Shown piece by piece: positions 20,136-57,557 of a stretch of DNA of 64,000 nucleotides. The position numbers and the translations under genes are program-made. The DNA is taken from NCBI GenBank assembly GCA_001773695.1, contig MEXN01000005.1, positions 3,687 to 67,686 on the forward strand. Direction: 5' to 3'. Source of the stretch: Candidatus Amesbacteria bacterium RIFCSPLOWO2_01_FULL_48_25 (GTDB taxonomy: Bacteria; Patescibacteriota; Microgenomatia; CAZETR01; Amesbacteraceae). Position 1 is the first letter of the stretch, and each line of letters begins with the position of its first letter. The notes under the pieces were generated by a model. That model saw only the letters and a program-made list of their open reading frames with translations. It did not search any database and was not told where the DNA came from.

Positions 20136-20334
20136 CTGACTTTTTAGGGATAGAGGGTTTCATTGCTCAATTTTAGTACTTTGTACTGCCAAATAGGGGG
20201 TATGGCCGCAAATGAGCCTCGTCGGGTAGGAGATATACTACTTCCCTCCTCCTAATACGAAGATTGGATTTTTAGAAAAAAGTCGGGTCTTACGGTTAGT
20301 CTATGAGACTGTAGTTAAACAGTGAAAGAGTAAC

Positions 20335-22560: not shown

Positions 22561-22574
22561 TTATAACTTAAAAA

Positions 22575-22889: not shown

Positions 22890-23010
22890 GGAAGTATTGA
22901 GAGTATTTTACCATTATTGGCTGATTATTGGGAATTATGCAGAACTAATGCTGAATAATTACAAGGTTTTTTGTCCACAGTGATAAAATCGGCAAAGATG
23001 AAGATTAAGT

Positions 23011-23463: not shown

Positions 23464-24100
23464 TTTCGAGAGAAAATAATACTTAGCTTCATTTCTTCTG
23501 CGTAATCTAATACCACCCTCCCTGGATTTTTTGAAAATAGCCTTGATTTCTAACGCTTCCAGTAGTGACTTCTAACTTTTGACCCGATTATCCTGTGGAA
23601 ATATGAATATGGGTGAATCATCAAATGTTTATGAAAGTGAAGACGAGCAAATTGCACCGATTTTGTTGACACGTCTGGGAAGAAATGTAACCGATGAAGA
23701 GGTGGTTGAGGCTAAATTTAATTTAAGTGGTTTTGCCAAAGTGTTGTTAAAGATGGCGATGGAGAGGAAGTATGGAAGGGCTAATAATTAGAGTCGTTAT
23801 TCCCATCTCTGATTTCCCCAGATTCAGGATTTCTAACCCTTTTACTGGCAGGGTGTCGTATCGGAAAACTATACGGGGAACATGGGACCTTCTGGAAAAG
23901 CGTTTTACCTCCGTTTGCAAGGCTGGCTCGGGGCATAAAACGGCTGTTTTGGTAAAAGATGGCTTGGGACACATCAACGAAACTTATGAGAGTTCAAATC
24001 CCGGATACCTGGGCTTTGCGGCGAGGTGCTTCTTGGAAGAGTTTATGAAATCCGGTATGCGGAGGAGGTTGGAGGTTGACTATCCACCTACTGATGAAAT

Positions 24101-43120: not shown

Positions 43121-43963
43121 TTAGGAATCTCTCCATGGTTGGGGTTCTTTCCCTGCGTATTGTACCAAAACCGGACTTAAGGATACAAGTTTGACTCGTT
43201 TGCCGGAAGGATCGATACTCCAAATTCCTGGCCAACCGACGAATGCACGATGCATTCGCGCAATGTCCAATTCACAAATCCCAAGATCCAAATAATTTTT
43301 TAATTTTTCAAATTCTATAAAACCGCTTTGGCGGGTGATTTTTTGAGTGAATGAGGCTTCGGCTTCGTTTTGGGGTTTATACCTCACCCCTTCGGTTCCC
43401 CTCTCCTGATTCAGGAGAGGGGGAAGGGGAGAGGTTAGAAAAAGTTTTGCGCCTTTTTCAAAAAGCCTATTTCCCAGGGTAATCCAGGTGTCGTTGGGGA
43501 GGATGACGTCTTTTTGCTGGGCGACAATAGGGCCGTGGTCCATGAGCGCGTCCAGCTGGATGATGGTAACGCCGGTTTGGGTCACGCCGTCTAATATCTG
43601 CTGTTGCAGGGGACTTGGACCACGGTATTTAGGTAGAAGGGACGGATGAATGTTGTAAATATGGTCATTAAATTTGTCCAGAATTGATTGGGGGATAATT
43701 TTGCCGTAGGCGGCGACGAGACCTATAACGCCCCCCTTCCCCCCTCTTAAATTAAGAGGGGGGATTGAGGAGGGTGATATATAAACTGGGATATGGTGTT
43801 TCAGGGCGAGGAGTTTGACGGGGTTGTGAGTGAGTTTGAGTCCGCGACCGGCGGGTTTATCCGGTGTTGTTACTGTAGCTGCAACCTGAAACCCGGAACC
43901 TAGAACCTTTTCTAACACTATTACTGAGAATGGCGAGGAGCCAAAGAAGACAAGACTTGACAT
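43121..43963 (-). CDS. fmt: methionyl-tRNA formyltransferase carrying two in-frame palindromic insertions
   Basis: 'MSSLVFFGSSPFSVIVLEKVL', 'IYNIHPSLLPKYRGPSPLQQQILDG', 'MHRAFVGWPGIW'; start at internal Met of the longer track ORF. Confidence 0.8.
   Translation of the reverse strand: MSSLVFFGSSPFSVIVLEKVLGSGFQVAATVTTPDKPAGRGLKLTHNPVKLLALKHHIPVYISPSSIPPLNLRGGKGGVIGLVAAYGKIIPQSILDKFNDHIYNIHPSLLPKYRGPSPLQQQILDGVTQTGVTIIQLDALMDHGPIVAQQKDVILPNDTWITLGNRLFEKGAKLFLTSPLPPLLNQERGTEGVRYKPQNEAEASFTQKITRQSGFIEFEKLKNYLDLGICELDIARMHRAFVGWPGIWSIDPSGKRVKLVSLSPVLVQYAGKEPQPWRDS
43388..43435. repeat. GC-rich palindromic element inside fmt (CCCCTCTCCTGA|TTCAGGAGAGGGG), in frame
   Basis: perfect 25-bp palindrome seen directly; fmt ORF continuous through it. 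Confidence 0.8.
43733..43775. repeat. GC-rich palindromic element inside fmt (CCCCCCTCTTAA-A-TTAAGAGGGGGG), in frame
   Basis: seen directly; encodes 'IPPLNLRGGKGG' between conserved Fmt segments. Confidence 0.8.
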
Positions 43964-43985
43964 GAGGAGATTATAATAGATATAT

Positions 43986-44357
43986 ATGGCACCGGTATGG
44001 ATTGAAGTGATGAGAGAGAGAGTGGATAGGGTGGGTAGTTTGTACCGCAGGGTGAGGGGTACCAAACCCGCACCGGCGATTTCTGTAGATCAGAGAGAGG
44101 CTGTGATTTTGGGAGAAGTTACGGGGTACGAAAGAACTGTAGCTACGCCGCGAGGACCGAAACTGGTGACCGGCAGGGCGACAGTTGTAGAAGCAGACGG
44201 TGATGAGATGTGTTTGCCGGGGGGAACTGAAGTGGGTGACCGAATGTCGATTCGGGGATTTAGTGGATTGGCACCGGGGTTGGTGGAGCAGGTTGGGAAT
44301 GCCGTAGAGTTGGATAGGGCAAAGAAGAAGGCTAGGCTGAAGGAGCGTAGGAGTTAA
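43986..44357 (+). CDS. hypothetical protein (123 aa)
   Basis: ORF only. Confidence 0.35.
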   Translation: MAPVWIEVMRERVDRVGSLYRRVRGTKPAPAISVDQREAVILGEVTGYERTVATPRGPKLVTGRATVVEADGDEMCLPGGTEVGDRMSIRGFSGLAPGLVEQVGNAVELDRAKKKARLKERRS

Positions 44358-45057
44358 TCAAGTCGTCCTTGAATTTTAATACTGAATCCGGTGGACCTTC
44401 GATTTCGTTTATGAATTCAAGCGCTGCTTCTTGCCCAGGTGTGAGTTCGGGTTCGTCCGGAACTTTAATTTCTGGTGGTGAGGCCCTTTCTGCGGCTCTG
44501 CGCCTCAATCCGGCCTCTCTTTGGACAACGATTGGAATGTGGAAAGGGCCAAGGGGGTTGGGGAGACGTTGGGGGTTTCGAGTGACTTGGATGGGGCGAC
44601 GGCGGAGGATCCGGTTTCCTACGTAGGCTATTACGGCGATGGCTATTATCGCTCCACCGACCAAAGTGGCATTGGGGCCTTGGATCTCTGGGTTTTTGGA
44701 AACAGTGACAGGCATTTCGGTGGGATGGGAGGGCTGGACTATGGATGTGGAGTAGAGACAAGATTCGGGGCTATTGGGGTCAACAAACTCTATTTGGCCG
44801 GTGGAGGTGATTTGACAGTTGCCGGATACAGTGGCGTTGGCAATCATCAGGGCGAGGGCGGTGTCTGGATTACTTATCGGGCTCACTTGCTGGTGTAATA
44901 TTTGCTCTGCGACTTGGAAATTGTTCAGATCCGGTTCGCCTGGGGGAGGTTGGACCAATTGGACAGCGTATCCGTCTCTGGTGGCGTAAGGAACGAACCA
45001 ATTACTAAAGGCCGGGGCATAGTTGACAGGCGCTTCTGGTGTAGGAATACTTCCCAT
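44332..45057 (-). CDS. hypothetical Pro-rich protein with one TM segment
   Basis: 'GGAIIAIAVIAYVGNRIL' TM; ORF only. Confidence 0.4.
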   Translation of the reverse strand: MGSIPTPEAPVNYAPAFSNWFVPYATRDGYAVQLVQPPPGEPDLNNFQVAEQILHQQVSPISNPDTALALMIANATVSGNCQITSTGQIEFVDPNSPESCLYSTSIVQPSHPTEMPVTVSKNPEIQGPNATLVGGAIIAIAVIAYVGNRILRRRPIQVTRNPQRLPNPLGPFHIPIVVQREAGLRRRAAERASPPEIKVPDEPELTPGQEAALEFINEIEGPPDSVLKFKDDLINSYAPSA

Positions 45058-45081
45058 AACTTATAGTATAGCGCGGGTTGT

Positions 45082-45690
45082 CTAGATTGTCACCTCGTGC
45101 CAGGTGTCGCCTTCGGCTTTGTATAATTTGGCGTTTTGTTCTAGGACCCGGTCTATAAATAGTATGCCGTTGAGGTGGTCCATTTCATGCTGAATGATAT
45201 GGGCAGGAAAGCCCGAAAAGACTGAGGTCTTTTCAATAATATCACCCTCGCCTTCGGCACCCCCTCTTAAATTCTCGCTTTCGGCTCGTGCCTTCGTCGT
45301 AAGAGGGGGATGGGGGGTGATACTGTGGAGAGTTTGATATTTGACGGTTACAGACATGGCGCGGGTGATGGGGGAATAGTGGCCGGGAAGGGAGAGGCAA
45401 CCCTCGTAGGTGCCGGATTTGCCATGGGGCAATTGGCGACGCTGGGAATATTTTATAATTTCGGGGTTGATGAAGACCTGGGGTATATCGTCTGGCTTGG
45501 GACGAGTGATAAAAATGCGCAAAGAGATTCCAATCTGGGGAGCGGCCAGCCCGACGCCAACTGGGTTTTTGGCGGTAATTAGTACTTTTTTCATATAATT
45601 GATGATATTTAGTACTCTAGAATCTAAGGAGGCGACGGACCTGGCGGTTTGGCGGAGTACGGGGTCGGGGACTTGGACGATTGTCGTCAT
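45082..45690 (-). CDS. def: peptide deformylase carrying an in-frame palindromic insertion
   Basis: 'GVGLAAPQIG', 'EGCLSLPG', 'QHEMDHLNG' three PDF motifs; ~27-aa insertion before motif III. Confidence 0.85.
   Translation of the reverse strand: MTTIVQVPDPVLRQTARSVASLDSRVLNIINYMKKVLITAKNPVGVGLAAPQIGISLRIFITRPKPDDIPQVFINPEIIKYSQRRQLPHGKSGTYEGCLSLPGHYSPITRAMSVTVKYQTLHSITPHPPLTTKARAESENLRGGAEGEGDIIEKTSVFSGFPAHIIQHEMDHLNGILFIDRVLEQNAKLYKAEGDTWHEVTI
45258..45318. repeat. long variant of the GC-rich palindromic element inside def (outer arms CCCCTCTTAA...TAAGAGGGGG with inner hairpin)
   Basis: seen directly; in frame. Confidence 0.75.
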
Positions 45691-47723
45691 GGGGTGATTT
45701 TATCACCAGAGGGGGTTGCCTGCCTGCCGGCAGGCAGGGTGAGCTCTTCCAGGCGAACTTTTGGATCGTTGAAGTCCGGCTTTAAGTCGAGAGAAGCTTG
45801 GAAATACTGGCGGGCCAAATCCGGGTGGTCTAGGTAGATGGCTATGATACCGCGGTTGTAGGGAATACGGGGGTCGGTGGGGGAGATTTGTGTGGCCTTG
45901 GCTAAGGCCTCGTCTGCTTGGGCCAGGTACTTGGAGTCTAAGTCGGAAAGGAGAATAAACATGCGGGAGCGGTTTTTGAAGATGTTGGGATGATATGGGT
46001 TGACTGATGCGGCTTTGTCCGAGGCGGATATGGCCACTCTGGCGAGTTGGGAGGCGGAAGTAGGGTCGGACTCGTTTGAGGCCAAGGCCAAAAAGGCGGC
46101 GGTGACTGATAAATCTGAGGCGATGGAGGGTTCGGCGGGATTGCCTTCATATGCCTGGGTCAAAGATTGATAGGAGGAGAGCAGGTATTTTGGCTCCTGG
46201 GTGGCGGTGAAGGCGCGGAGATTATATGTGCCGGCGGCATAATCGACGTCGGCTAGCCAGTAGCGGGAGATAGCAAACAACAAATAGCAAACAGCAAATC
46301 CGGGAATAAATAACAAGAATATTTGGGGTTTCGAGATTTGGGTTGATTTGTGTTCTTGGGGTTCATTGTTTAGAGCGATGGCCATGGCGGGGAAGAGGAA
46401 CAAAAATATTTGGATAATGACGACGGAAAAGCCCCAGAAATTCGTGACGGATATAGAAAGCCAACCCGCAAACAAGGCGGTCAGTAACGCCCCCTCTGAG
46501 GGGGTGTTATTAAAAAAGCATCGAATCATAAAACCAAGCAAGACCAGGTAGGAGAGAAGGCCGAGTAAACCGGTATTGGCTAAGTAGTTTAGAAACTCAT
46601 TGTGGGCTTTGTTGTAGAGGAGTTCCCATTCGGTGGTGGTGTTGTGGGCCCGGGGCCGGTATTGATAGTAGGACATAGCAAATGTTTCCGGGCCGGTTCC
46701 TACTAGGAAGTTTTTGGTGCTGGCTTGCCAGATACTTAAGGCCCCGGACCAGACGATTTTTCTGATATTTCCGGATTCGGTGATGCCGCTGGTTTCCAGG
46801 GAAGTTTCGGTGGGGGAGGTCGTTTTGGTAGTGATGGGTGGGGGAGGAGAGGATTTAAATCTGGATTTCAGGAAATCTCCGGCGGGATTATTGATGGTGA
46901 GGGTGAGGGTGAGCGTGAGGGCTAAAAAGGCAAGAATTTTTAATTTTAAATTCGAAATTTTTAATGAATTTTTATTTTTTAAATTTTCAATTATTAAATT
47001 TCCCCAAAACAAGATTGATGATATGCCGAAGGCCATGAGGCCGGAGCGGGATTTGGTAAACAGTAATGCAGAAAAGTAAATAGTGAACAGTAAATAGTAA
47101 ATTGTAGGGAATTTTTTGGAAGATAAAATTTTGGAGAGGGGAACAAACATTAGGGCGACTAAATATGCGGCCATCCAGTTAGGCTGGCCCAATGTGGCAA
47201 AAACCCGGCCTTGGACATCTTGGACCCAGCAGGAAACGTCCCAGGTACCTGTCGTGAATACGCAGGATGGGGAGAAACCAAAATGCTCGAGAGTGCCGTA
47301 GATAGAAACAAGGGCGGAAGTGATCAGTGAATAGTTGATCAGTTTCAGGGTAGAGCGGCGGTCCATGTAGGTGACGTAGGCCCAATAGAGGAGGGAGTAA
47401 GCCAGTAATGATGCTAGACCTCCGTTAAATCTGGAATAGTAGCCGTGCCAGGAGACGTGGGTGGAAATAGAGAATAAGAGACTAAGAGATTGAGATATTA
47501 AGAAAATAAGAAGCGGCCAGTCTAGGGGGGTGCGCCTAAAAACGAATTTTTTTTGTAGAATGCAGTCGGCGAGCCAGGAGGAAACTATAACGGTTGTGAT
47601 GAGATAGGTGAGAATGATTTTATTAAATTCAAAAAGCTCGGAGGTGATTGAGAGGAAAAAGAGGGGGACGGAGAAGAAAAGAAGGTAAAACGACCAGCGG
47701 ATGATTCTACTTGGCCAGGACAT
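45687..47723 (-). CDS. O-antigen ligase (Wzy_C)-like polytopic membrane protein with C-terminal TPR domain; contains a short palindrome and an AT-rich low-complexity insert
   Basis: ~12 TM helices, loop 'GTGPETFAMSYYQYRP', C-terminal TPR-like 'ARQYFQASLDLKPDF'; start overlaps def stop. Confidence 0.6.
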   Translation of the reverse strand: MSWPSRIIRWSFYLLFFSVPLFFLSITSELFEFNKIILTYLITTVIVSSWLADCILQKKFVFRRTPLDWPLLIFLISQSLSLLFSISTHVSWHGYYSRFNGGLASLLAYSLLYWAYVTYMDRRSTLKLINYSLITSALVSIYGTLEHFGFSPSCVFTTGTWDVSCWVQDVQGRVFATLGQPNWMAAYLVALMFVPLSKILSSKKFPTIYYLLFTIYFSALLFTKSRSGLMAFGISSILFWGNLIIENLKNKNSLKISNLKLKILAFLALTLTLTLTINNPAGDFLKSRFKSSPPPPITTKTTSPTETSLETSGITESGNIRKIVWSGALSIWQASTKNFLVGTGPETFAMSYYQYRPRAHNTTTEWELLYNKAHNEFLNYLANTGLLGLLSYLVLLGFMIRCFFNNTPSEGALLTALFAGWLSISVTNFWGFSVVIIQIFLFLFPAMAIALNNEPQEHKSTQISKPQIFLLFIPGFAVCYLLFAISRYWLADVDYAAGTYNLRAFTATQEPKYLLSSYQSLTQAYEGNPAEPSIASDLSVTAAFLALASNESDPTSASQLARVAISASDKAASVNPYHPNIFKNRSRMFILLSDLDSKYLAQADEALAKATQISPTDPRIPYNRGIIAIYLDHPDLARQYFQASLDLKPDFNDPKVRLEELTLPAGRQATPSGDKITP

Positions 47724-47979
47724 GCTAATTAGTTTAGCATGTTGCCGTCTTTAATTTTGGGAAGCGATGGCCAGCGCCCCCAGGCCGAAAAGGGTAATGC
47801 CGCCTAGGCAATATACCCCAAGCATGGCGTCGGGAGAGATTTTGCCGGCCCCGATCTCGTAAACCTGGTTTAGGATGGCGGCCCCGGTGCCAATTGCTAG
47901 TGTAGCTATAGCTGCCAATTTGGTCCAAGAAGGGATATTCAATTTGGATTCGGGTTGATTTTCTGGGGGACGAATAGAC

Positions 47980-48447
47980 ATGTTATGTCATTATAACACT
48001 GACTATAGGATATGTCAAAAGAGATTGGATACTATAGGCTTGACATGGTGTTTGGTATGTGGTAGCCTTATATTTATGCCATACGGAAGCAATGAGGGTG
48101 ACCGATCTTTCGAAACTGTCGAACAGGCCAGGAATTCTGCCGTGGGATATGCAATGAGAGCTTTGGGATGGTTGGTTGGTTGTACTACACCCAAAAGAGA
48201 AGTAGATAATGCTGGAGACGAGAAGGCGGTGGTGTGGCAGGTAAAGGGAGAGAACGGGACGAAAAAATTCGTGAGAATCAGAGAAGATTTACATGATCCG
48301 AGTGGAAAAGTGGTGTTTGATGTAGAGACGTCTCAGAGTTCACCCAAGAGATCCACAAGTAAAGAGACCGTGCATTTTTTGGCTCAAGACTCTGATGCCG
48401 AAGCGGTTGCAGCAAAAAAATCAAGGAGACGGGGTAATGGCCAGTAG
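47980..48447 (+). CDS. hypothetical protein (155 aa)
   Basis: ORF only; overlaps next gene. Confidence 0.3.
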   Translation: MLCHYNTDYRICQKRLDTIGLTWCLVCGSLIFMPYGSNEGDRSFETVEQARNSAVGYAMRALGWLVGCTTPKREVDNAGDEKAVVWQVKGENGTKKFVRIREDLHDPSGKVVFDVETSQSSPKRSTSKETVHFLAQDSDAEAVAAKKSRRRGNGQ

Positions 48448-49330
48448 ATATGAGGTTTTTGAATTGTTATCAGGCATAGAATCATTGTCCCGCGAGCAGA
48501 GGGGAAATATAAGTCGAGTAAGTAAAAGAAAACTTCTTAATCAGGCCGGAACTACATATTTAGCAATGGTTGAGTACGAGTCTGGGAAAAAGGTAGAGGG
48601 GATTTGTAAAGAGTATGAGCGTGGCCAGGGAAGTGGGTGGTTGGAGGCGGCAACTAAGCAGGCGTTGGTCTTAAGCGCTTTGGAAATGCAGGATAATACT
48701 ACTGGAAAGTTGTTGGACGTGGTAGTGGGGGTAGATGAAAGTGACAGGGTTGATAAGGTTATGATAGTGCGGGGGAGGATTGAAGGTATGACACTCAGAG
48801 ATTTTGTTTCAGCAAGACCGCTTAGTGAAGTGAGAAGGCGCGTGGGAGTGTTGTTTTCCCAACTGGCACAAGTTTCTTCTGACGGAGTTTTGATTAATGT
48901 TGGTATGGCATATTGCGGTGACTTGTCCGCTCGAAATGTAATCGAGTCTGGGCGGGGATATGAGATTATTGAATGGGACGGGTTGCTTGGGCAGGGTGGG
49001 ATGTCAGATTTAACGGCCGGTTACGTGGCTCCGGAAGTGATTAATACAGAAGGTGCAGTGGCCGAGGTTCAGGCTGATACATATAGTCTGGGTTGTGTTT
49101 TGGCCAGGGCCTTAATCGGGCAGGAGAGATTTAGGAGTATAGTTCCAGTAGGAGATTTCGCTAAGTTTTTGACGTTTGATAAAATTAAAAATTTGGTTCC
49201 GCGTGAAGCTCACGATTTTTTTGCATTTACTTTGAGGAAGTCAAATAGAGACAGGGTGTTCTCGGGGGCTAGTAACCCAACGGTTCACTACCAGAGGTCG
49301 AAGGAATTGTTTATGGGACGGCTCAGTTAA
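48395..49330 (+). CDS. atypical eukaryotic-like protein-kinase-fold protein (HRD replaced by CGD, no obvious Gly-rich loop)
   Basis: 'YCGDLSARNVI' (cf. HRDLAARN), 'IEWDGL' (DFG-like), 'YVAPEV' (APE), 'DTYSLGCVLARALIG' (DxWSxG). Confidence 0.5.
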   Translation: MPKRLQQKNQGDGVMASRYEVFELLSGIESLSREQRGNISRVSKRKLLNQAGTTYLAMVEYESGKKVEGICKEYERGQGSGWLEAATKQALVLSALEMQDNTTGKLLDVVVGVDESDRVDKVMIVRGRIEGMTLRDFVSARPLSEVRRRVGVLFSQLAQVSSDGVLINVGMAYCGDLSARNVIESGRGYEIIEWDGLLGQGGMSDLTAGYVAPEVINTEGAVAEVQADTYSLGCVLARALIGQERFRSIVPVGDFAKFLTFDKIKNLVPREAHDFFAFTLRKSNRDRVFSGASNPTVHYQRSKELFMGRLS

Positions 49331-49332
49331 AA

Positions 49333-50157
49333 TTATTCAGATTGGCTGGAGGCAAGGTTGATGATGCGGACGGAGTGGCCGGTGGGGTGAGCTAAGATGT
49401 GTTTGGTTGCCGATTTTTCGGCTTCTACTTTTGCGTTTAGTAATATCTGGGGCTCATTGGGGTCTGGGGTTTGTCCACAATAGCGAACAAGTAGGAGGAA
49501 CAAATGCAGGCCGCGGCCGCGGTCGCATTTTTGACAGAAGACCATTACTCCAATGGCCGTTCCCCTCAATATTTCTTCGTCTTTTATTGTTGATGAATCT
49601 GTATCGTATGCAGGTGGAAAATCACATGGGGGAGGCCCTTCTTTGCTAAACTTGCTTCTTCGGGTCCAGTGGTGTCCTTTCATAGCTTATTAGGAGTTAT
49701 CGTCGGGGCTGGCGTAGGGTTCACCACCTTTTAACATGTGGTGGTTCCAGTTTTGGTGTTGGGGAAGATCTGCTAGTATGAACGTTCTCGCATCTAGTTT
49801 TAGGTTTGTGATTGCATCTCTATCTGCTAGTATAATCCGGCAAATTAATTGCTCAGCCTGATCGACGACGTTGGGTAGTTTGGCAGGCCGGGTGTGAGTG
49901 GGGAGGTTTTTTTCTGAGTCGGGGACGGGGAAGAAGAGGCAGTGGGGACCAGTACATTCACCGGAGCGATCGTGAGGGCATTGGAAGGGAAGAATTAGTA
50001 GATTTTTTCGTTGGCTAAGTTGGCGGGCGGAATTCCAGAGTTCGCAGGCCATGGGAGAGATTATAGCCGTCATACTCGAGTTCGCCAATGGCGGACAAGA
50101 GTTGGCGGATATATGACCAACGCAGTTTGCTACTGCAAACTGGAATACGTTGGGCAT
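49333..50157 (-). other. two adjacent Cys-containing ORFs (49690..50157 and 49333..49683) possibly one disrupted gene
   Basis: same strand, 7-nt gap; C-x2-C and scattered Cys/His; no confident family. Confidence 0.25.
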
Positions 50158-50182
50158 ATATATGATATATTGCGAGTGAGTT

Positions 50183-51238: not shown

Positions 51239-51278
51239 CAAATTGACCTAATTGACCTAATTGATCTAATGTCTAAGT

Positions 51279-52904
51279 ATGCGTAAATTCAGGCCGGGGT
51301 TGAGTTTTTCCGATTTTGTACAGCGGGGGGGGAAGGTATGGAAATTTAGGGCCGAGGAGCAGAGAGATTACCGGAGGGGATGGTTGGTGTGGCTGGGGGT
51401 TGTCGTGGTGTTTGGAGTATTGGGAGTACGACTTACCGGCTTGACGGTATTTTCAGGTGGAAAGTATCGGGTACTGGCGGATGAGAACCGGATTTCTAGG
51501 ATTAGGCTGCCGGCGCCCAGGGGAAAAATTTTGGATAGGAACGGAGTAGAGTTGCTCCGAGACGAGGCGACCGCGCACGTGGTGGGTTATGTGGGGGAGG
51601 TAAGCGAAGATGAGGTAGGGCTTTTGAAAGAAAAGGGGGCCAAATACACTCCTGGAAGTTTGATTGGCAGATCAGGGATAGAAGCTCAGTACGAAGAAAC
51701 TTTGCGGGGGGTGGATGGGGGGAGGCTGGTGGAGGTGGATAACGTAGGTGAGGCAGCCCGCGAGTTGGGCAGGCGGGAGCCGGTAGCGGGGACTGATTTG
51801 CGGTTATCAATAGACGCTGGCCTACAGGAAATAGCATATAAGTCATTAAATGGTCAAAAGGGGGCGGCGGCGGTTTCTGATCCGAGGACGGGAGAAATAT
51901 TGGCGCTGGTGTCGTCGCCGTCGTTTGATCCAAACGAGATTAGTACTAAGTATGAAGTACTAAGTGCAAAGGCGGACTTACCTTTTTTCAACCGGGCGAT
52001 TGGCGGTGTATATGCGCCGGGGTCGACTTTTAAGATAGTAACGACCACGGCAGCCCTTGAGTCGGGGAATGTCGAACCGGATTTTGTGTTTGAGGACCGG
52101 GGAGTGATAACCGTGGGTAGTTTTAGCTACACCAACTGGTTGTTTACCAAACGGGGGGGAATAGAAGGGGTGGTGGGATTTGATCGGGCTTTGACCCGCT
52201 CAACGGATACATTTTTTTATAAGGTGGGGGAGTTGACAGGGCCGGAAATCATAGTCGAGTGGGCCAAGAAAATGGGGTTGGGGGAGAAAACCGGGATTGA
52301 TTTGCCCGGAGAAGTGGCTGGATTGGTGCCGGACCCAACGGCTGGCTCAGGGCAAGGCTGGTATTTGGGGAACACGTATCACTTGGCGATTGGGCAAGAA
52401 GACTTGCTGGCGACGCCGTTGCAGATTAATGTGATGACTAATATTATTGCTTCGAACGGAAAGAAATGTAAGCCTAGGCTGGTTAATACCGCCCTCTCCA
52501 GTCCCCCTCCTAAATTAGGAGGGGGAAGTAAGGGGGAGGTATGTAGCGAGGTTAAGATTTCATCCGAAACCCTTGAAATTATTAAAAAGGGGATGGTGGG
52601 GGCGTGCAGTACCGGGGGAACGAGCTTTGTGATGTTTGATTGGAATGCGTCGGAGTCGTTTCCGAAGATTGCTTGTAAGACGGGGACCGCTGAGTATGTG
52701 GCCCAGAACGGCCGGATAAAAACCCACGCTTGGCTGACGGCCTTTGCTCCGGCTGATAACCCCGTGATTTCGGCTACGGTAGTGTTTGAGGGCGGGGGGG
52801 AAGGATCCAATGTGGCAGCGCCGGCGGTCCGGAAAATATTTGCTAAATATTTTGGGGTGGAAGACACTTATCCTTACGGGGCGATTAGGGGGGAGGGAGA
52901 ATAA
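51279..52904 (+). CDS. mrdA: penicillin-binding protein 2 (class B transpeptidase) with in-frame palindromic insertion
   Basis: N-terminal TM, dimerisation domain, transpeptidase motifs 'STFKIV' (SxxK), 'SNG'-like 'ASNG', 'KTGTA'. Confidence 0.85.
   Translation: MRKFRPGLSFSDFVQRGGKVWKFRAEEQRDYRRGWLVWLGVVVVFGVLGVRLTGLTVFSGGKYRVLADENRISRIRLPAPRGKILDRNGVELLRDEATAHVVGYVGEVSEDEVGLLKEKGAKYTPGSLIGRSGIEAQYEETLRGVDGGRLVEVDNVGEAARELGRREPVAGTDLRLSIDAGLQEIAYKSLNGQKGAAAVSDPRTGEILALVSSPSFDPNEISTKYEVLSAKADLPFFNRAIGGVYAPGSTFKIVTTTAALESGNVEPDFVFEDRGVITVGSFSYTNWLFTKRGGIEGVVGFDRALTRSTDTFFYKVGELTGPEIIVEWAKKMGLGEKTGIDLPGEVAGLVPDPTAGSGQGWYLGNTYHLAIGQEDLLATPLQINVMTNIIASNGKKCKPRLVNTALSSPPPKLGGGSKGEVCSEVKISSETLEIIKKGMVGACSTGGTSFVMFDWNASESFPKIACKTGTAEYVAQNGRIKTHAWLTAFAPADNPVISATVVFEGGGEGSNVAAPAVRKIFAKYFGVEDTYPYGAIRGEGE
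52497..52540. repeat. GC-rich palindromic element inside mrdA (CCCCCTCCTAA-A-TTAGGAGGGGG), in frame, encodes SPPPKLGGGSKGE
   Basis: seen directly. Confidence 0.8.
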
Positions 52905-52905
52905 A

Positions 52906-54138
52906 TTACCGGCAGACGCAATATGTCCATCTGGTGAGTTGGTTTGATGTGGACCCTTTTGAACAATAGTTTGATAAGAATGAACTGGTCATTAAAGTGG
53001 CACAGTTCCCACCTTCTGTGACGCAGTCGTAATTTACATAACATGACGATGGAGAGAATGGACAGTTGAGGTCGGCGGGGTCGGAGTATCCGGGAATTAT
53101 GATATCAACGCAAGAGAGGCCACGGCTGCTGCAGATCATGGCACAGGAATCGCCAGTGCCTGCGTTGAGTATCGGAGCGAGGGTGGGGGTGGGGGGAATG
53201 GGGGTGGGGGTGACCACATTAATAACATAACTTGCAAACGGTCCGGGACAGCGATAAACGGGTGGTCCACTAACACAGTCGCTGTTCCCTCGACATTCCG
53301 CAATACCATCATTCCATGCTCGGCAATCGATGACATATCTACCGCCAACCGTGGGAGTCCATGTGAATGACACGTTCCCCGGTCCGCCCGGTGAATCTTG
53401 CCAGAAATTCTGTGTCGCGCAATTATTACTTGTTACTGCCGTTCCCCTGCTGGTTACCGGTCCGTTGTAGTTTTCGTAAGTGAAAGTGTACGTCGCTGGA
53501 TTTCCTAGCACTATTGTTGAAGGTCCAGTCACATTCTTGCAATTGGGATATGGGGGTAGGGTTGGGGTGGGGGTGGGGGGGGACGAAAGACATTGGCAGA
53601 TGAGGGAGGAGATGCAGTAGGGTTGGTTTGGAGATGTGCAGTTGTTTTCAACCACTGATCCTATGTCGCACTGGCAGGTGTTTGGAGGAAGAAATGAGGT
53701 GGGGGTGGGGGGAATGGAAGTGGGTGGTGGGGTAGTGGGGACTCGGGTGGCTGTGGGTGGGGGAGGTGGGAAGGTCGGTTGGGGGGGGGAAGACGAGAAA
53801 CCTGAGGTAAAGGAAGGGATTTGGTAAGAGATGAGGTTGATCCCAAAAAACTGGGAGGCGAGGCGGATGATGAGTAAAATACATAAAAGAATGGTCAGAC
53901 CTACGAGAGCAGAAATGAGCCTTTTTCTGGCTTGACCCAGAGCTTCTTTGTCACCTCCAGCGGTTAAAAATTGATAGCCTCCCCAGATGAGCATGAACAG
54001 AAAGACAATGCCGCCGATTATGAGTGCCAGGGTGAGGACGGCCTGAAAGATGTTGGAGAGAATCGTTCCCAGCTTGTCTAATCCTAGCTGACCTAAGGCT
54101 GGAGTTAGAATTGGGTTTACCAGGGCAAATAGAGGCAT
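52906..54138 (-). CDS. fusion protein: N-terminal VirB2/TrbC-like (T4SS-pilin-like) two-TM hairpin domain + Pro/Thr linker + Cys-rich C-terminal domains
   Basis: 'ALIIGGIVFLFMLIWGGYQFLTAGGDKEALGQARKRLISALVGLTILLCILLII' two hydrophobic helices separated by charged loop; long PTPT linker; ~30 Cys in C-terminal half. Confidence 0.55.
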   Translation of the reverse strand: MPLFALVNPILTPALGQLGLDKLGTILSNIFQAVLTLALIIGGIVFLFMLIWGGYQFLTAGGDKEALGQARKRLISALVGLTILLCILLIIRLASQFFGINLISYQIPSFTSGFSSSPPQPTFPPPPPTATRVPTTPPPTSIPPTPTSFLPPNTCQCDIGSVVENNCTSPNQPYCISSLICQCLSSPPTPTPTLPPYPNCKNVTGPSTIVLGNPATYTFTYENYNGPVTSRGTAVTSNNCATQNFWQDSPGGPGNVSFTWTPTVGGRYVIDCRAWNDGIAECRGNSDCVSGPPVYRCPGPFASYVINVVTPTPIPPTPTLAPILNAGTGDSCAMICSSRGLSCVDIIIPGYSDPADLNCPFSPSSCYVNYDCVTEGGNCATLMTSSFLSNYCSKGSTSNQLTRWTYCVCR

Positions 54139-54150
54139 ATTATTGATTGC

Positions 54151-55467
54151 TTATTGGCAGCGACAATAGGTCCAGTCTACGAAGTGTCCAGTGCAGACAA
54201 CGTAACCACCGGCGATTTGTGGCTGTCTAGTTAGTGTGGTGTTGCAACTAGCCGGTTGACTGTATGAACAAGAGAAGCCGCTAAGTGTGTTGTAAGTTCC
54301 TCCGGTTCCGGTAGCATTGGTTCCGATGTCGATACATGTCCTGCCGGAATTGCCGCAAACCGTGTTACAAGATTGAGAGATGCCAGGCGCTGGTTCATTG
54401 AGAACCACGACGGGAACTGGGGTAGGGGTGGAAGTGGGGACGGAACATGGGCGGATTCCGGTACAGGAAGTACTGCTAACAGGACTTTCTAAGGCTTGCC
54501 TGTAGGCTGTGGCCGTGTAGGTATAACTAGTTCCACAAATGGCAGTGAAATCCGGATAAGTGAATGTTTGTCCAGTGCCGATGAGGGGATTGGGATTGTC
54601 GAATAGTCTGAATGCTAGGTCGTTTCTGTATATCCTGAACCCGTCTTCGTCTGTGGAGTTGTCTCTAAAGGTGACAGAAATTCTGTCTGTGAGATTTGTT
54701 GAGCAAGAGACCATGGTTGGAGCGATTAGGGGTGCGAGGGTGGGGGTGGGGGAGGGGCCGGAGCCGCCGCATTTACAGTTTGTCCATTGAGTGGGTCTCC
54801 CTTCGCAAATACCGCCGTCGCTATTTAAGTTGAGTGTGCATACATTTGTACCACCGAAGGCTAATTGGTCTGCGCATGTGCCGCCTACGAAAGCTCTCCT
54901 GGCACCATTCTCACCTGCAGCGTCCGTCCCTCTGCTCACGCAGGTGTACCCCCTGCTTGTACAAGCAGTTTGACAATTGCCCGAAGCGTTTATGGGGACT
55001 ATTGATATGAAGGAGGGGGTGGGGGTGGGCGCGCCTGGGGTTGGGGTGGGAGTGGGGTTTAATATGTCAATCGTCGGGGTGGGCGTGCTGCCGCCGGGGA
55101 AGGTGGGGAGGGGAATGAAAGCACCCGGGCCTTCTGAGAAAGTGGGGAGTTGGAAAGCCAAGAGGTTGACGCCAAAGAACTGGGAGGCGAGGCGGGTGAT
55201 GACCAGGATGCATAAAAGGATGATGATGCCAATAAGGGCGGAGGTGAGGCGTTTACTGGCCATGCCCATTTTTTCTTTGTCCCCTGCTGATGTCAAGAAC
55301 TCGTACCCGCCCCAGATGAGCATGAAAAAAAAGATGACAGCGCCTAGGGTGAGCGCTATGGAAAGAATTGCCTGGAGGAAGTTGGAGACGGTTGGTCCTA
55401 TCTTGTCGACTCCTAGCTGACCTAAGGCTGGGTCCAGGATGGGGTTTATGAAGGCGAAGAAGGGCAT
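54151..55467 (-). CDS. paralog of 52906..54138: VirB2/TrbC-like pilin N-domain fused to a different Cys-rich C-terminal region
   Basis: N-terminal 110 aa ~65% identical to neighbour ('MPFFAFINPILDPALGQLGVDKIG...MLIWGGYEFLTSAGDKEKMG'); divergent C-terminus. Confidence 0.55.
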   Translation of the reverse strand: MPFFAFINPILDPALGQLGVDKIGPTVSNFLQAILSIALTLGAVIFFFMLIWGGYEFLTSAGDKEKMGMASKRLTSALIGIIILLCILVITRLASQFFGVNLLAFQLPTFSEGPGAFIPLPTFPGGSTPTPTIDILNPTPTPTPGAPTPTPSFISIVPINASGNCQTACTSRGYTCVSRGTDAAGENGARRAFVGGTCADQLAFGGTNVCTLNLNSDGGICEGRPTQWTNCKCGGSGPSPTPTLAPLIAPTMVSCSTNLTDRISVTFRDNSTDEDGFRIYRNDLAFRLFDNPNPLIGTGQTFTYPDFTAICGTSYTYTATAYRQALESPVSSTSCTGIRPCSVPTSTPTPVPVVVLNEPAPGISQSCNTVCGNSGRTCIDIGTNATGTGGTYNTLSGFSCSYSQPASCNTTLTRQPQIAGGYVVCTGHFVDWTYCRCQ

Positions 55468-55490
55468 AGGGCGACTAATGCTACAATAGC

Positions 55491-57557
55491 ATGATTATGA
55501 ATTTGGTACTAGTGGAAAGCCCGACCAAGGCCAGGACTCTAGGGAAATTTTTGGGAACTGGTTTTGACATTGAGGCGACGTATGGTCATGTGAGGGATCT
55601 GCCAAAGAAGAAGATGGGGATAGAGATAAAGAGATTAAGTGATGGAGTGATGAAGTTTGAGCCGGAGTACGTGAGTACGAAAGAACAGGAGAAAAAGATC
55701 AAAGATATTAAGAGATTAAGTGATAAAGCAGAATGGATATATCTGGCGACAGATCCGGATCGGGAAGGAGAAGCGATTGCCTTTCATGTAGCGGAGCTAC
55801 TGAAAGTCAACAAATCCCAAGCCCCAAGCCCCAAATCCCAAATTAAGAGGATTGTATTTCATGAGATCACGGAACATGCCATAAAAGAGGCGTTGGGGCA
55901 TCCGCGGGGATTGGATATGAAGTTGGTTGACGCTCAGCAGGCGCGAAGAGTGTTGGACCGGTTGGTAGGGTATAAATTGTCTCCATTACTGTGGAAAAAG
56001 ATAAGAAGGGGGCTGTCGGCGGGGAGGGTGCAAAGCGTGGCAGTGCGATTGGTAGTGGAACGAGAAAGGGAGATTGAAGCTTTTAAACCAGAAGAGTATT
56101 GGCAAATCATGGTGGATTTGCTCAAGATCCAAGAACCAAGAAACAAGATACAAGTGACGTTGGTTGAGAAGAACGGGGAGAAAATGAAAATCGGAAATCA
56201 AGTTGAGGCGGAAAAAGTGGAAGGGGATTTGAGGGGGGCGGGATATGTGGTGGAGGGGGTGGAGATGAAGGAGTTTAAGCGGACCCCGCCGGCGCCGTTT
56301 ACAACTTCTACACTTCAGCAGGCGGGGGCAAATAAGCTGGGGTGGAGTGCCAAGCGGACGATGCAAGTGGCACAGGGTTTATATGAAGAGGGACTAATTA
56401 CTTATCACCGGACGGACTCGACAAACATTGCTGTTGAAGCAGCGCTTGCGGTTAGGCAGTTAATTAGTGATCGGTTTGGGAAAGAATATTCTTTAGAGAA
56501 ACCTAGATTCTATAAAACCAAAAGCAAAGTGGCGCAGGAGGCTCATGAGGCCATACGTCCTACGGACGTGAATACCACCTCGTCTCACGGCACCCCTCCT
56601 AATTTAGGAGGGGTCGGGGGTAGTATAAACCGCGACCAGGCGCGATTGTACGAGATGATTTGGAGGAGGTTCGTGGCGTGCCAGATGGCGGAGGTACGGG
56701 GGACGAGTGTTAAAATTAGTGTGGTTGCCGGTCAATACGGCTTGGAAGCAAGGGGTGAAACTATAACTTTTGATGGTTGGTACAAGGTGTTGGAAAAAGA
56801 CGCCGAAGAAAATTTATTGCCGCAGGTGAGTGAGGGGGAGAAGTTGGATTTTGTAGATTTAACAAAAGAGCAAAAATTTACTCAACCGCCAGCCCGGTAC
56901 AATGACGCCTCGCTGATTAAAGCATTGGAGGAGATGGGGATCGGGCGGCCCTCCACGTATGCGCCGACTTTGTCGACAATTCAAGACAGGCAATATGTAG
57001 AGAAGATCGAAAAGCGCTTTAAGCCAACTGAGTTGGGGGTGGCGGTGAATGATTTTTTGGTGGCCAACTTTCCCCGGGAAGTAAATTATGAGTTTACGGC
57101 CAATATGGAGTATGGTTTGGACGAAGTGGCCAATGGAGACAAGGAGTGGCAACCGCTGGTGTCTGATTTTTACGGGCCATTTGAGGCGGATTTAAAGAAT
57201 GTGGAGCAGACGGTGGCGAGAGTGAAAGTGGAAGTGGAGAAAACGGGGGAGAAGTGCCCGGAGTGCGAAGTTGGGGATGTGGTGATAAGAATAGGAAGGT
57301 TTGGAAGATTTTTGGCTTGCAGCCGGTATCCGGAGTGTAAATATAAAGCGAATTATCAGAACAAGATTGGGATGAAATGCCCCAAATGTAGTGAAGGGGA
57401 CGTAATAGTGAGAAAGACCAGAAAGGGCAAGAGTTTTTACGGCTGCAGCCGGTACCCCGATTGCGATTTTGCCAGTTGGACTAAGCCGCAAGTGAGTGGT
57501 CAAGATAAAAAAGAAGGAGGAGATGGACAAACGGGAAAGGGAAGAGCAGAACAGTGA
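55491..57557 (+). CDS. topA: DNA topoisomerase I with C-terminal zinc ribbons; carries one palindromic and one low-complexity in-frame insertion
   Basis: TOPRIM 'LVLVESPTKARTLGKFLG', 'YLATDPDREGEAIA', active-site region 'ITYHRTDST', C4 ribbons 'CPECE...C', 'CPKCSEG...C'. Confidence 0.9.
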   Translation: MIMNLVLVESPTKARTLGKFLGTGFDIEATYGHVRDLPKKKMGIEIKRLSDGVMKFEPEYVSTKEQEKKIKDIKRLSDKAEWIYLATDPDREGEAIAFHVAELLKVNKSQAPSPKSQIKRIVFHEITEHAIKEALGHPRGLDMKLVDAQQARRVLDRLVGYKLSPLLWKKIRRGLSAGRVQSVAVRLVVEREREIEAFKPEEYWQIMVDLLKIQEPRNKIQVTLVEKNGEKMKIGNQVEAEKVEGDLRGAGYVVEGVEMKEFKRTPPAPFTTSTLQQAGANKLGWSAKRTMQVAQGLYEEGLITYHRTDSTNIAVEAALAVRQLISDRFGKEYSLEKPRFYKTKSKVAQEAHEAIRPTDVNTTSSHGTPPNLGGVGGSINRDQARLYEMIWRRFVACQMAEVRGTSVKISVVAGQYGLEARGETITFDGWYKVLEKDAEENLLPQVSEGEKLDFVDLTKEQKFTQPPARYNDASLIKALEEMGIGRPSTYAPTLSTIQDRQYVEKIEKRFKPTELGVAVNDFLVANFPREVNYEFTANMEYGLDEVANGDKEWQPLVSDFYGPFEADLKNVEQTVARVKVEVEKTGEKCPECEVGDVVIRIGRFGRFLACSRYPECKYKANYQNKIGMKCPKCSEGDVIVRKTRKGKSFYGCSRYPDCDFASWTKPQVSGQDKKEGGDGQTGKGRAEQ
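56587..56620. repeat. GC-rich palindromic element inside topA (CCCCTCCTAA-T-TTAGGAGGGG), in frame, encodes TPPNLGGVGG
   Basis: seen directly. Confidence 0.8.

Follow-up and report, generated by a model that had tools for sequence, protein, structure and literature searches.

Nested palindromic repeats in frame in essential genes of an Amesbacteria genome belong to a cross-phylum family physically associated with DUF559 genes

Described repeat systems and the build of the six elements

The BoxC, PIT or TMECO repeats of Escherichia coli and other Proteobacteria are described triplex-motif elements (Holder et al., 2015, PMC4666352, and earlier work cited there). TMECO were linked with locally unstable DNA, stalled replication and small deletions, were reported as "always intergenic" and were connected neither with mobile elements nor with the function of flanking genes; a DUF559 link is absent from that account (Holder et al., 2015, PMC4666352). 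In published tests, PIT elements had neither promoter nor terminator activity. Like the elements analysed here, BoxC/PIT/TMECO repeats are GC-rich and dispersed, about 35-55 nt long, often in palindromic pairs and at hypervariable loci; they are multi-copy: MG1655 has 23, and the median over 5426 E. coli genomes is 17.

Rickettsia palindromic elements (RPEs), of about 100-150 bp, are a likeness in behaviour, being in-frame palindromic repeats whose extra peptide is tolerated at permissive sites of housekeeping genes. To our knowledge they are confined to Rickettsia and its relatives, and we know of no enzyme associated with them. REP/REPIN repeats are short dispersed palindromes whose RAYT gene, usually single-copy and vertically inherited, is flanked by cognate repeats, the repeat type tracking the gene lineage. 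Homing endonucleases and inteins, finally, place a small endonuclease-type ORF in frame in an essential gene.

We analysed a 64 kb stretch of an Amesbacteria genome (the window), for which a preliminary description had reported six GC-rich palindromes of about 15-25 bp, all in long ORFs. All six were located at or near the reported positions, each read through without a frame break, in fmt (twice), def, a Wzy-like gene, mrdA and topA, with Pfam support for the hosts (Formyl_trans_N; Pep_deformylase; Wzy_C; Transpeptidase and PBP_dimer; Toprim, Topoisom_bac and Zn ribbons). Each is larger than reported, its full extent being a nested palindrome of 25-84 bp, in which outer arms A and C (TA[A/T/C]C.CCCC ... 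GGGG.G[T/A/G]TA) enclose an inner palindrome B, with extra mini-hairpins in some elements. The elements themselves carry no strand assignment.

The first fmt element (43381-43435) has a variant core and lies in the linker that joins the N- and C-terminal domains; it consists of A arm ACCTCACCCCTTC, GGTT, inner palindrome CCCCTCTCCTGA-T-TCAGGAGAGGGG and C arm GAAGGGGAGAGGT, with a perfect stem of 12 bp (43398-43422) and the minus-strand peptide TSPLPPLLNQERGTEGV. The second (43726-43779), in the N-terminal domain, reads TAACGCCCCCC, tt, CCCCCCTCTTAAATTAAGAGGGGGG, attgag, GAGGGTGATA, with a 13 bp perfect stem (43738-43764) and the minus-strand peptide ISPSSIPPLNLRGGKGGV. The def element (45239-45322) is a long nested form, ATATCACCCTC being followed by the mini-hairpin gccttcggca, CCCCCTCTTAAATT, a 26-nt third-level insert, TAAGAGGGGG, atg and GGGGGTGATA; its perfect stem spans 10 bp with a 30-nt loop (45260-45309), and its minus-strand peptide is ITPHPPLTTKARAESENLRGGAEGEGD. 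The mrdA element (52487-52541), in the transpeptidase domain of PBP2, consists of TACCGCCCTCTCC, agt, CCCCCTCCTAAATTAGGAGGGGG, aagtaa and GGGGGAGGTA (perfect stem of 12 bp, 52502-52526; plus-strand peptide TALSSPPPKLGGGSKGEV). The topA element (56573-56625), whose outer stem is partly decayed, consists of ATACCACCTC, gtctcacggca, CCCCTCCTAATTTAGGAGGGG, tc and GGGGGTAGTAT (perfect stem of 11 bp, 56592-56614; plus-strand peptide TTSSHGTPPNLGGVGGS).

The sixth copy, in the Wzy_C/O-antigen-ligase-like gene, had been listed as a copy of the palindrome and is a bare outer shell: this minimal element (46484-46508; TAACGCCCCCTCTGAGGGGGTGTTA on the plus strand, NTPSEGAL on the minus strand) has arms A and C fused, lacks the inner palindrome and forms a perfect stem of 7 bp (46489-46503). 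At the junction of the Wzy-like gene and def, related modules (45691-45745), a palindrome CCTGCCTGCCGGCAGGCAGG (LPAGRQA) and GGGGTGAT-TTT-ATCACC, form the C-terminal tail of the Wzy-like ORF, adjoin the def start codon and have a fold energy of -31.3 kcal/mol; their arm sequences suggest that they are also family members. The LPAGRQA peptide recurs in a further Fmt homologue (P0028).

TMECO and the window elements share a succession of blocks, pyrimidine, purine complement and mirrored purine, with short loops between (loop 2 has about 3 nt and is often TTA). The elements here differ in that they have a loop 1 of 7 nt (TAAWTTA) and are four-block perfect nested palindromes, lie in frame inside ORFs and occur in CPR and many non-proteobacterial phyla. 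The strict TMECO pattern has no match in the window; three window elements fit a generic Y-R-R motif, which was found 0 times in 30 shuffles, and the Y-R-R mirror motif is perfect in the first fmt element (9-nt blocks, no mismatch) and in the mrdA element. Across the family, 56 of 135 copies have a perfect mirror third block, compared with 1 among 675 controls. Such polypyrimidine/polypurine blocks can fold as a nested hairpin or as an intrastrand triplex-type Y-R-R structure.

Enrichment, reading frame and host loops

The palindrome is far commoner than chance predicts, with 4 matches to CCCCTC-N3-14-GAGGGG in the 64 kb window against 0.11 expected, a number reached in 0 of 100 dinucleotide shuffles. 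When the window was folded in 64-nt windows (mean -12.5, sd 4.9 kcal/mol), the top three folds were three of the elements: the first fmt element (-41.8 kcal/mol), mrdA (-38.9) and the second fmt element (-36.0). Folded as single-stranded DNA, all six elements gave z values of -3.7 to -6.7, including -6.7 for 43381-43435, -5.2 for 43726-43779 and -4.5 for the minimal element. The stems also covary: at the single free position per arm of the search pattern, 132 of 135 copies are complementary, which keeps the inner palindrome perfect.

It had been proposed that two of the three frames avoid the internal TAA and that every copy uses a permissive frame. The canonical core has only one open frame per strand, the other two holding TAA, and TAG or TAA. 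In-frame use stands, and it reflects survivorship in essential genes rather than targeting. Because coding density here is about 87%, the location of all six copies in genes is unremarkable, and the lengths of the window elements showed no bias to multiples of three.

Compared with close relatives, the peptides are lineage-specific at all tested sites (both fmt sites, topA and mrdA), as the preliminary description had supposed. Against distant PDB orthologues they are net insertions at three sites only: def (+28 aa), topA (+9) and the second fmt site (+6). In the def product, the 28 or so residues in excess of PDB deformylases fall between the EGCLS and HExxH motifs. Relatives without the peptides at the same codons were found in the TopA, PBP2 and Fmt comparisons. 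Among 60 aligned Fmt homologues, the first fmt element occurs only in the window protein and its closest partial relative (P0007), and the second site is hypervariable and in some homologues empty. Of 60 TopA homologues, the window protein alone has the topA peptide, the other 59 being without it, and relatives at 82-83% identity carry another cassette, GQFSNSNFQFS, at this site. PBP2 of an Amesbacteria relative (L208, 63% identical) has SNNDQ in place of the mrdA peptide and is 14 aa shorter at this point. In the AlphaFold2 model of Fmt, otherwise confident (mean pLDDT 91.3), both element peptides are low-confidence coil, with pLDDT averages of 66 (43726-43779) and 53 (43381-43435) over the two 10-residue blocks that cover them. 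The earlier picture of a dispersed family of GC-rich palindromic mini-elements, in frame in variable loops or linkers of essential genes, is upheld.

Another reading takes the repeats to be functional cis-acting structures selected in place rather than selfish DNA, such as terminators, stabilisers, translational pause or stop-restart modules with an SD-like AGGAGG, or recombination hot spots formed by mRNA or DNA hairpins or triplexes. In its favour, the folds are highly stable and compensatory changes maintain a perfect stem; the right arm contains AGGAGG, the loop has stop codons in two frames and, beside DUF559 genes, an SD-like sequence by the ATG comes from the C arm and the stop codon from the A arm or the B loop. 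However, copies sit at non-conserved, lineage-specific positions in essential ORFs, close relatives do without them, and no consistent element position relative to genes emerged. Decayed copies exist (the topA outer stem; NSRGG in Fmt homologue P0042), and the published tests of PIT elements likewise argue against a regulatory role. We regard selection in place as improbable.

Spread across phyla and DUF559 neighbours

The family is not peculiar to CPR: loci with the exact 21-nt core, which have conserved outer arms in common, number at least 119 and come from Bacteroidota, Nitrospirae, Deltaproteobacteria/Thermodesulfobacteriota, Acidobacteriota, Spirochaetota, Chlamydiae, Gammaproteobacteria and many Patescibacteria. 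Outside CPR, most genomes carry the core chiefly between genes, and Deltaproteobacteria, Nitrospirae and Acidobacteria also have conserved genes with in-frame copies; Pfam-confirmed hosts are MnmA, FolD, YchF, LigA, Fmt, YggS, His_Phos_1, HypE, MacB and E2. The parallel with RPEs drawn earlier survives as one of behaviour (palindromic, in frame, housekeeping genes). The elements here are shorter, span several phyla, lie mostly between genes in non-CPR bacteria and are associated with DUF559. Triplex-block architecture and DUF559 flanks were beyond the reach of the preliminary description.

Of the protein clusters shared among loci near the repeats, DUF559 is the largest; no other protein family was enriched there, and no transposase, RAYT or integrase cluster was found near the 119 loci. 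The genes bracketed by element modules encode putative endonucleases of about 120 aa with a Vsr-like fold. Among 80 DUF559 loci retrieved through the protein alone, all of one subfamily picked from copies already beside repeats, 48 of 77 have a B-type hairpin no more than 120 nt upstream (controls 3/204) and 47 of 72 have one at such a distance downstream (controls 1/204). Arm motifs were found upstream in 51/77 (controls 9/204) and downstream in 51/72 (controls 7/204), and overall about 63% of these 80 genes have flanking modules, against about 1% of controls. Module order is clade-dependent, B-C-gene-A-B or A-B-gene-B-C, and no single model fits both.

Three Amesbacteria genomes have DUF559 at a syntenic dnaJ-nusA site, and in one (L204) it is inverted. 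The flanks of this DUF559, ATATCACCCC-(a/g)ccttcggca-CCCCTCTTAAWTTAAGAGGGG ... GGGGTGATAT, match the window def element, which aligns with them, long insert included; the window elements are homologous to the Amesbacteria DUF559 flanks. The arm types of solo copies and DUF559 flanks co-vary by clade. In a Saccharibacteria MAG, a whole DUF559 domain with its flanking hairpins lies in frame inside LeuRS, reminiscent of a homing endonuclease or intein; unlike those, it has no splicing domain, and the Amesbacteria DUF559 is syntenic and intergenic. The nearest solved structure to DUF559 is 3HRL, labelled merely "endonuclease-like protein", and a PADLOC "homing endonuclease" model matches it weakly.

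A classical class of mobile repeats, whether MITEs with TA duplications, REP/REPIN moved by RAYT, integron attC sites or RPE homologues, is the least probable reading and a very doubtful one. The TA...TA ends, with arms ..TAAC and GTTA.., are reminiscent of IS630-type TA duplications or of the AAC/GTT of attC, and the in-frame behaviour is RPE-like. The TA ends, however, belong to the palindrome, and excising the element plus TA restores the frame in some copies only. No cluster of the corresponding enzymes lies near the 119 loci; AAC/GTT lies at the outer stem end, against the inner end in attC R boxes, and cassette arrays with intI are absent; the GTAG/CGTC tag of REP/REPIN is not conserved; the 25-84 bp of the elements compare with about 100-150 bp for RPEs; and the elements have no Rfam family match.

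Possible routes of copying

By analogy with REPIN-RAYT, we lean towards the view that the six palindromes, copies of a modular non-coding repeat, are non-autonomous shells of a repeat system associated with DUF559. The differences are that REPIN-RAYT uses an HUH/Y1 transposase and the protein here is DUF559, a putative nuclease of the Vsr-fold PD-(D/E)XK type, that copies lie inside genes, and that mobilisation is proposed here. DUF559 would be the mobilising or maintaining enzyme, its usually single-copy, vertically inherited gene being housed within a pair of repeats, and A-B-C shells without the gene would be copied or maintained at other genome sites, most likely by nuclease nicking of the structured repeats with subsequent repair or copying. 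We know of no 120-aa PD-(D/E)XK nuclease among transposases. In a CPR genome of this coding density most insertions would hit genes, and the copies that persist would be those with the single open frame and a flexible Pro/Ser...Gly-rich peptide in tolerant loops or linkers. The window has no DUF559 gene, and since its copies differ from one another in sequence, none is demonstrably recent.

The main competitor, which we hold possible though unlikely, is spread independent of DUF559, by replication slippage and template switching that hairpins or triplexes induce, or by another transposase, DUF559 being cargo that preferentially lands in the repeats or is stabilised between them by homing or recombination into landing pads. 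The instability, stalling and deletions at TMECO, and their lack of mobile-element association, would fit such a route (Holder et al., 2015, PMC4666352). For the elements we found neither a target-site duplication nor a defined insertion junction, module order around DUF559 varies, and DUF559 is inverted in place in L204. An orthologous IF-2 site has a short variant in one case and a long one in another, as in nested growth, and the same loops in relatives also carry simple (AAAATTG)n cassettes, suggesting generally unstable sites. On the other hand, an identical 21-nt core with matching arms in many phyla is hard to obtain by slippage, and the long variant is dispersed (window def, IF-2 and the DUF559 flank of L204, and Fmt homologue P0009), which argues for copying over local growth. 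The clade-wise covariation of arm types and the lack of any other enriched protein family also tell against it, and the Amesbacteria DUF559 is syntenic rather than hopping.

Under the DUF559-associated reading, which takes the family to be of one kind with the BoxC/PIT/TMECO repeats, the link suggests what may spread these long-unexplained repeats. In Nitrospirae loci, TMECO-pattern copies adjoin elements of the present family. In E. coli, TMECO no. 9 lies 168 bp from ycjD, a DUF559 gene, and the ycjD stop codon is inside a degenerate TMECO-like hairpin.

Anatomy and Reading Frame of the Window Elements

All six palindromes originally reported in the window are present, and each is read through in frame inside an ORF. 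By Pfam, the host genes are fmt (site 2 at 43381..43435, in the linker between the N- and C-domains, and site 1 at 43726..43779, in the N-terminal domain), def (45239..45322), a Wzy_C-type gene, mrdA and topA. The elements are larger than the preliminary description had them, as outer arms extend each one past the core noted there. In the general layout, arm A (TA[A/T/C]C.CCCC) is followed by a short spacer and then by the inner palindrome B (CCCCTCYTAAWTTARGAGGGG or variants of it), after which a further spacer leads to arm C (GGGG.G[T/A/G]TA). In the Wzy-like gene A is fused straight to C and B is absent, while the def copy carries a GCCTTCGGC mini-hairpin plus an extra 26-nt insert within the loop of B. 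Because of this nested anatomy, i.e., a shell without B, B inside A and C, and an insert inside the B loop, the element family is hierarchical.

Chance or base composition as the origin of the palindromes is ruled out by four measurements. The pattern CCCCTC-N3-14-GAGGGG has 4 matches in the window, where 0.11 would be expected, and 4 was not reached in any of 100 dinucleotide shuffles. In a fold scan of every 64-nt segment of the 64 kb (mean −12.5 kcal/mol, SD 4.9), the top three folds are three of the elements, with −41.8, −38.9 and −36.0 kcal/mol. As single-stranded DNA, all six elements fold into nested hairpins with z-scores of −3.7 to −6.7, considering Watson-Crick folding only. Finally, a generic Y-R-R motif (pyrimidine block, purine complement, mirrored purine block) is found in three elements and in none of 30 shuffles; it is perfect in fmt site 2 and mrdA (9-nt blocks, 0 mismatches) and has 8-nt blocks with one mismatch in fmt site 1. 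A search with Rfam at gathering thresholds detected no known RNA family in the window besides four tRNAs.

Canonical B has just one open frame per strand, CCN CCT CYT AAW TTA RGA GGG, which encodes P-P-L/P-N/K-L-R/G-G, and not two of three frames free of TAA as had been proposed. Use of this open frame by the copies is what would be expected from survivorship in essential genes. Since coding DNA amounts to ~87%, the location of 6/6 copies in genes is not significant in itself.

The encoded peptides were compared with those of other proteins to see whether they are insertions. Compared with solved orthologues, the def product is ~28 aa longer, between catalytic motifs, the topA product is 9 aa longer and Fmt is 6 aa longer at site 2, whereas fmt site 1 and mrdA show no extra length. 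Close relatives provide the decisive comparison, and against them the TopA, PBP2 and both Fmt insertions are lineage-specific. The TopA segment TTSSHGTPPNLGGVGGS occurs in the window protein alone among 60 TopA homologues; at the same site, GQFSNSNFQFS is found in relatives at 82-83% identity and GKERLDGV in one at 74%. The PBP2 of an Amesbacteria relative (63% identical) has SNNDQ in place of the window NTALSSPPPKLGGGSKGEV, and both Fmt sites are hypervariable in 60 homologues, which contain an assortment of recurring cassettes or nothing. The window Fmt shares 100% identity with the NCBI Fmt of Candidatus Amesbacteria bacterium RIFCSPHIGHO2_01_FULL_48_32, a member of the CPR (Microgenomates). 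In its AlphaFold2 model (mean pLDDT 91.3), the sole two dips in confidence, 10-residue blocks averaging 66 and 53, are coil located exactly at both elements. No def, mrdA or topA orthologues were found among the loci matching the core pattern.

The hypervariable loops of related Amesbacteria (Fmt homologues P0002-P0060, TopA homologues P0242-P0257 and ~1660-1700 of locus L207) also hold the AT-rich cassettes ENCKLKIEN, SQFSIFNQ and QFSNSNFQFS, which are absent from the window. ENCKLKIEN and SQFSIFNQ seem to represent one (AAAATTG)n-type heptamer repeat read from opposite strands.

Distribution of the Repeat across Phyla

A scan for the 21-nt core in one genome per GTDB species returned at least 119 loci, in Pedobacter and other Bacteroidota, Nitrospirae, Deltaproteobacteria/Thermodesulfobacteriota, Acidobacteriota, Neomarinimicrobiota, Spirochaetota, Chlamydiae, Gammaproteobacteria and many Patescibacteria. 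The element is thus not confined to the CPR. The same A and C arms flank these cores in clade-specific variants (AAC[T/G]CCCCC, ATCACCCC and ACCACCCC). In 132 of the 135 copies, the position that the core pattern leaves free in each arm is complementary, and the C arm mirrors the right arm of B perfectly (7/7) in 56/135 copies compared with 1/675 controls. Among the loci listed, non-CPR copies are mostly intergenic. In-frame copies with Pfam-confirmed hosts nevertheless occur outside the CPR (YggS, histidine phosphatase, HypE, MacB and E2 acyltransferase), and CPR hosts include MnmA, FolD, YchF, LigA and Fmt. At one codon of IF-2 (~aa 254) in two Amesbacteria, a short PPLNLRGG is present in locus L200 (6332-6354) and a long PPLTARPRIESENLRGG in locus L204 (1980-2029), which indicates nested gain or loss in place within an inherited element. 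The long variant is itself dispersed, occurring in the window def, in IF-2 and at a DUF559 flank of L204, and in the Fmt homologue of another genome. Altogether, these data define a structured, dispersed, cross-phylum repeat with lineage-specific in-frame loop insertions.

In full elements of the Delta/Nitrospirae type (loci L007-L116), one outer-stem position repeatedly lacks complementarity, as TAAC[G]...[A]GTTA or TAAC[T]...[C]GTTA. This mismatch is present in 12/16 copies having TAAC[G/T]...GTTA arms, and the inner palindrome is almost always perfectly complementary. In a Daviesbacteria MAG (L072), a 2011-aa ORF contains an element at aa ~548, just past a Cys that by eye appears to open an intein. 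This putative intein, CVAEGTRIRV...VAHNT, sits in a giant repeat protein and, if genuine, would place the repeat within another selfish element.

We compared the elements with several known systems. Rickettsia palindromic elements (RPEs) are ~100-150 bp repeats in Rickettsia. The parallel with RPEs drawn in the preliminary description stands as far as behavior is concerned, since the window elements are likewise inserted in frame at permissive protein sites; compared by size and host only, they differ in being 25-84 bp long and in residing in Amesbacteria. An origin as an IS630-like MITE with TA target-site duplication was rejected, as the TA ends belong to the palindrome and the frame arithmetic does not fit a fixed duplication: removal of the element plus TA restores the frame in topA (51 nt) but not in fmt site 1 (52), mrdA (53) or the Wzy-like copy (23). 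No transposase was found near the 119 loci listed, nor was any integrase cluster. Integron attC sites carry R''(RYYYAAC)/R'(GTTRRRY) boxes with AAC/GTT beside an unpaired central spacer, and occur in cassette arrays with a nearby intI. In the repeat described here, a 10-bp stem carries AAC/GTT at its outer end, i.e., the box geometry is wrong, and the multi-copy loci are not ORF-attC arrays and have no intI, so attC was also rejected.

Association of the Repeat with DUF559 Genes

From the 119 loci listed, ORFs encoding 120 aa or more were clustered into cross-locus families. The biggest of these is a ~120-aa protein encoded beside or between palindromes, identified as DUF559 (PF04480, Pfam E about 1e-31) with a Vsr-like PD-(D/E)XK fold; among the loci listed, it is the sole protein family enriched beside the repeats. 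We then fetched 80 metagenomic DUF559 loci by protein alone, without selecting on the repeat; they represent one subfamily, whose query copies already adjoined repeats. In 48/77 cases the 120 nt upstream of the gene contain a B-type hairpin, as do the 120 nt downstream in 47/72 (3/204 and 1/204 in control windows taken at the same loci), an enrichment of 62-65% versus about 1%. Likewise, a GGGGTGGT-type arm is found upstream in 51/77 cases versus 9/204 controls and a ACCACCCC-type arm downstream in 51/72 versus 7/204. The DUF559 ORF often extends into the A arm, with its stop in the B loop, and the start codon is abutted by the C arm. Arm types co-vary by clade and the order of modules around the gene varies. 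The physical association of the repeat with DUF559 is tight.

In Amesbacteria, DUF559 proteins share 78-93% identity among genomes, and the gene holds a syntenic position between dnaJ and nusA in three of them, inverted in one. It is flanked by ATATCACCCC-(a/g)ccttcggca-CCCCTCTTAAWTTAAGAGGGG ... CCCCTCTTAAATTAAGAGGGG-agatcgga-GGGGTGATAT, and the window def element can be aligned with them, long insert included. Solo A-B-C elements thus look like gene-less shells of a DUF559 unit, and in its modules the window repeat fits a proposed class of DUF559-associated repeats. Using tblastn, no DUF559 gene was detected in the 64 kb window, and the dnaJ-nusA locus that is its home in other Amesbacteria is absent from it. 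In the LeuRS of a Saccharibacteria MAG (CAYXQM010000094.1, locus L095, 434-2911), a whole DUF559 domain (aa 267-371) is embedded in frame so that it separates the catalytic core from the editing domain, with GC-rich hairpin/triplex modules on its flanks; a second, solo element is found farther downstream in the same gene. The nearest solved structure to DUF559 is the uncharacterised 3HRL, and PADLOC gave only weak, uninformative matches, to methyl-directed restriction enzyme and homing endonuclease models. Membership of the REP/REPIN-RAYT system was rejected: there is no Y1 transposase (RAYT) beside the repeats at the loci listed, where DUF559 alone is enriched, and no conserved GTAG/CGTC tag at the hairpin foot, aligned copies ending in TA[A/T/C]C ... 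G[T/A/G]TA.

Escherichia coli YcjD is a DUF559 protein. The sequence CCCTCGCCCCTCTGGGGAGAGGGTTAGGGTGAGGGG is located 168 bp from the ycjD 3' end (L206, E. coli MG1655 1351204-1351760), and the ycjD stop codon lies within a degenerate TMECO-like hairpin. Holder et al. 2015 (PMC4666352) list CCCTCGCCCCTCTGGGGAGAGGGTTAGGGTGAGGGG in their Table 1 as no. 9 of the E. coli triplex-motif repeats (TMECO), which are the same as the BoxC/PIT element. TMECO has 23 copies in MG1655 and 3610 in 262 proteobacterial genomes; its single strand forms a triplex in vitro, and it was described as "always intergenic" and tied to local genomic instability, without a known function or any reported connection to mobile elements or flanking genes (PMC4666352). 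Neither ycjD nor any endonuclease is mentioned in that paper (PMC4666352). Over all 5426 complete E. coli genomes, a 46-mer containing TMECO no. 9 has a median of 17 matching places per genome. TMECO numbers 29 copies in E. coli 55989 and one in IHE3034, and it is reported to be missing from Salmonella.

The strict TMECO pattern, CCCTCNCCC-N3-6-GGGNGAGGG-N3-GGGNGAGGG (Holder et al. 2015), is matched on neither strand of the window. It is present in loci L024, L089, L100 and L110 and by E. coli ycjD, and in Nitrospirae loci strict copies adjoin A-B-C elements. The window elements do share the TMECO-like block logic (Y-R-R, short loops, class II C-G-G motif), and elements of their type are, like TMECO, multi-copy, dispersed and above shuffled expectation. 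They depart from TMECO in location, with 6/6 window copies inside ORFs and many in-frame copies in other phyla.

In the literature searched, which left most subscription-journal papers outside its coverage, no link between the repeats and DUF559 came up, and neither did any account of them in CPR. The earlier interpretation is retained for the RPE-like behavior, but the family is pan-bacterial, BoxC/PIT-like and DUF559-linked. By analogy with REPIN-RAYT, we propose that the repeat system works through a resident nuclease positioned between its cognate repeats. The DUF559 nuclease would nick or process these repeats and so promote the copying of gene-less shells, and selection would then retain only open-frame copies at permissive sites. 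The main rival explanation is that the repeats arise and spread independently, through structure-induced replication errors or another enzyme, with DUF559 genes doing no more than settling in their midst. The window has no DUF559 gene, there is no target-site duplication and module order is varied, all of which speak against a DUF559-driven process; on the other side stand the flank enrichment and the agreement of the def element with DUF559 flanks.

It is tempting to speculate, although we consider it somewhat doubtful, that DUF559/YcjD-type Vsr-fold nucleases serve as the dedicated enzymes in a hitherto unrecognised pan-bacterial repeat system functionally parallel to RAYT-REPIN, making and maintaining GC-rich hairpin/triplex repeats that include E. 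coli BoxC/PIT/TMECO and, in gene-dense genomes such as those of CPR, writing short peptides and occasionally the nuclease itself (as in Saccharibacteria LeuRS) in frame into essential proteins. If true, this would link the BoxC/PIT/TMECO repeats, known for decades without a function or mobility mechanism, with DUF559, a very common family of small nucleases that has no assigned function and includes YcjD, and with the many unusual, lineage-specific insertions seen in loops of CPR housekeeping proteins. The DUF559 link offers a lead, amenable to testing, on the spreader of BoxC/PIT-type repeats and on the role of DUF559. For annotation, the repeat accounts for recurrent PPL(N/K)LRGG-type peptides and for length variation in essential proteins of MAGs, and such segments should be read as repeat-derived rather than as functional motifs. 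After the RPEs of Rickettsia, this is a second clear case of selfish palindromic DNA moulding proteins, here across several phyla.

Other Features of the Window

The window (1-64000) shows extreme strand asymmetry, with G far exceeding C on the + strand and (G-C)/(G+C) of about 0.27-0.45 in 2-kb bins. This skew is independent of gene orientation (0.35 in + strand genes, 0.27 in − strand genes and 0.29 in intergenic DNA). Two islands, 20000-24000 and 39940-41265, are almost without skew; the first has a low G+C of 0.39-0.41 and small ORFs only, and may be recently acquired DNA.

The motif TAGATCAATTAG / TTGACCTAATTG is repeated at 977-995, 21304-21315, 51243-51270 and 62538-62551, with tandem copies directly upstream of mrdA. 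The sites at 977-995 and 51243-51270, which were placed against ORFs, fall at gene boundaries, and the motif could be a promoter or operator. G-rich GGTGGGGGTGGG-type repeats at 30679-30760, 35184-35260, 53181-53760 and 54738-55050 lie within − strand ORFs, where they would encode Pro/Thr-rich low-complexity linkers.
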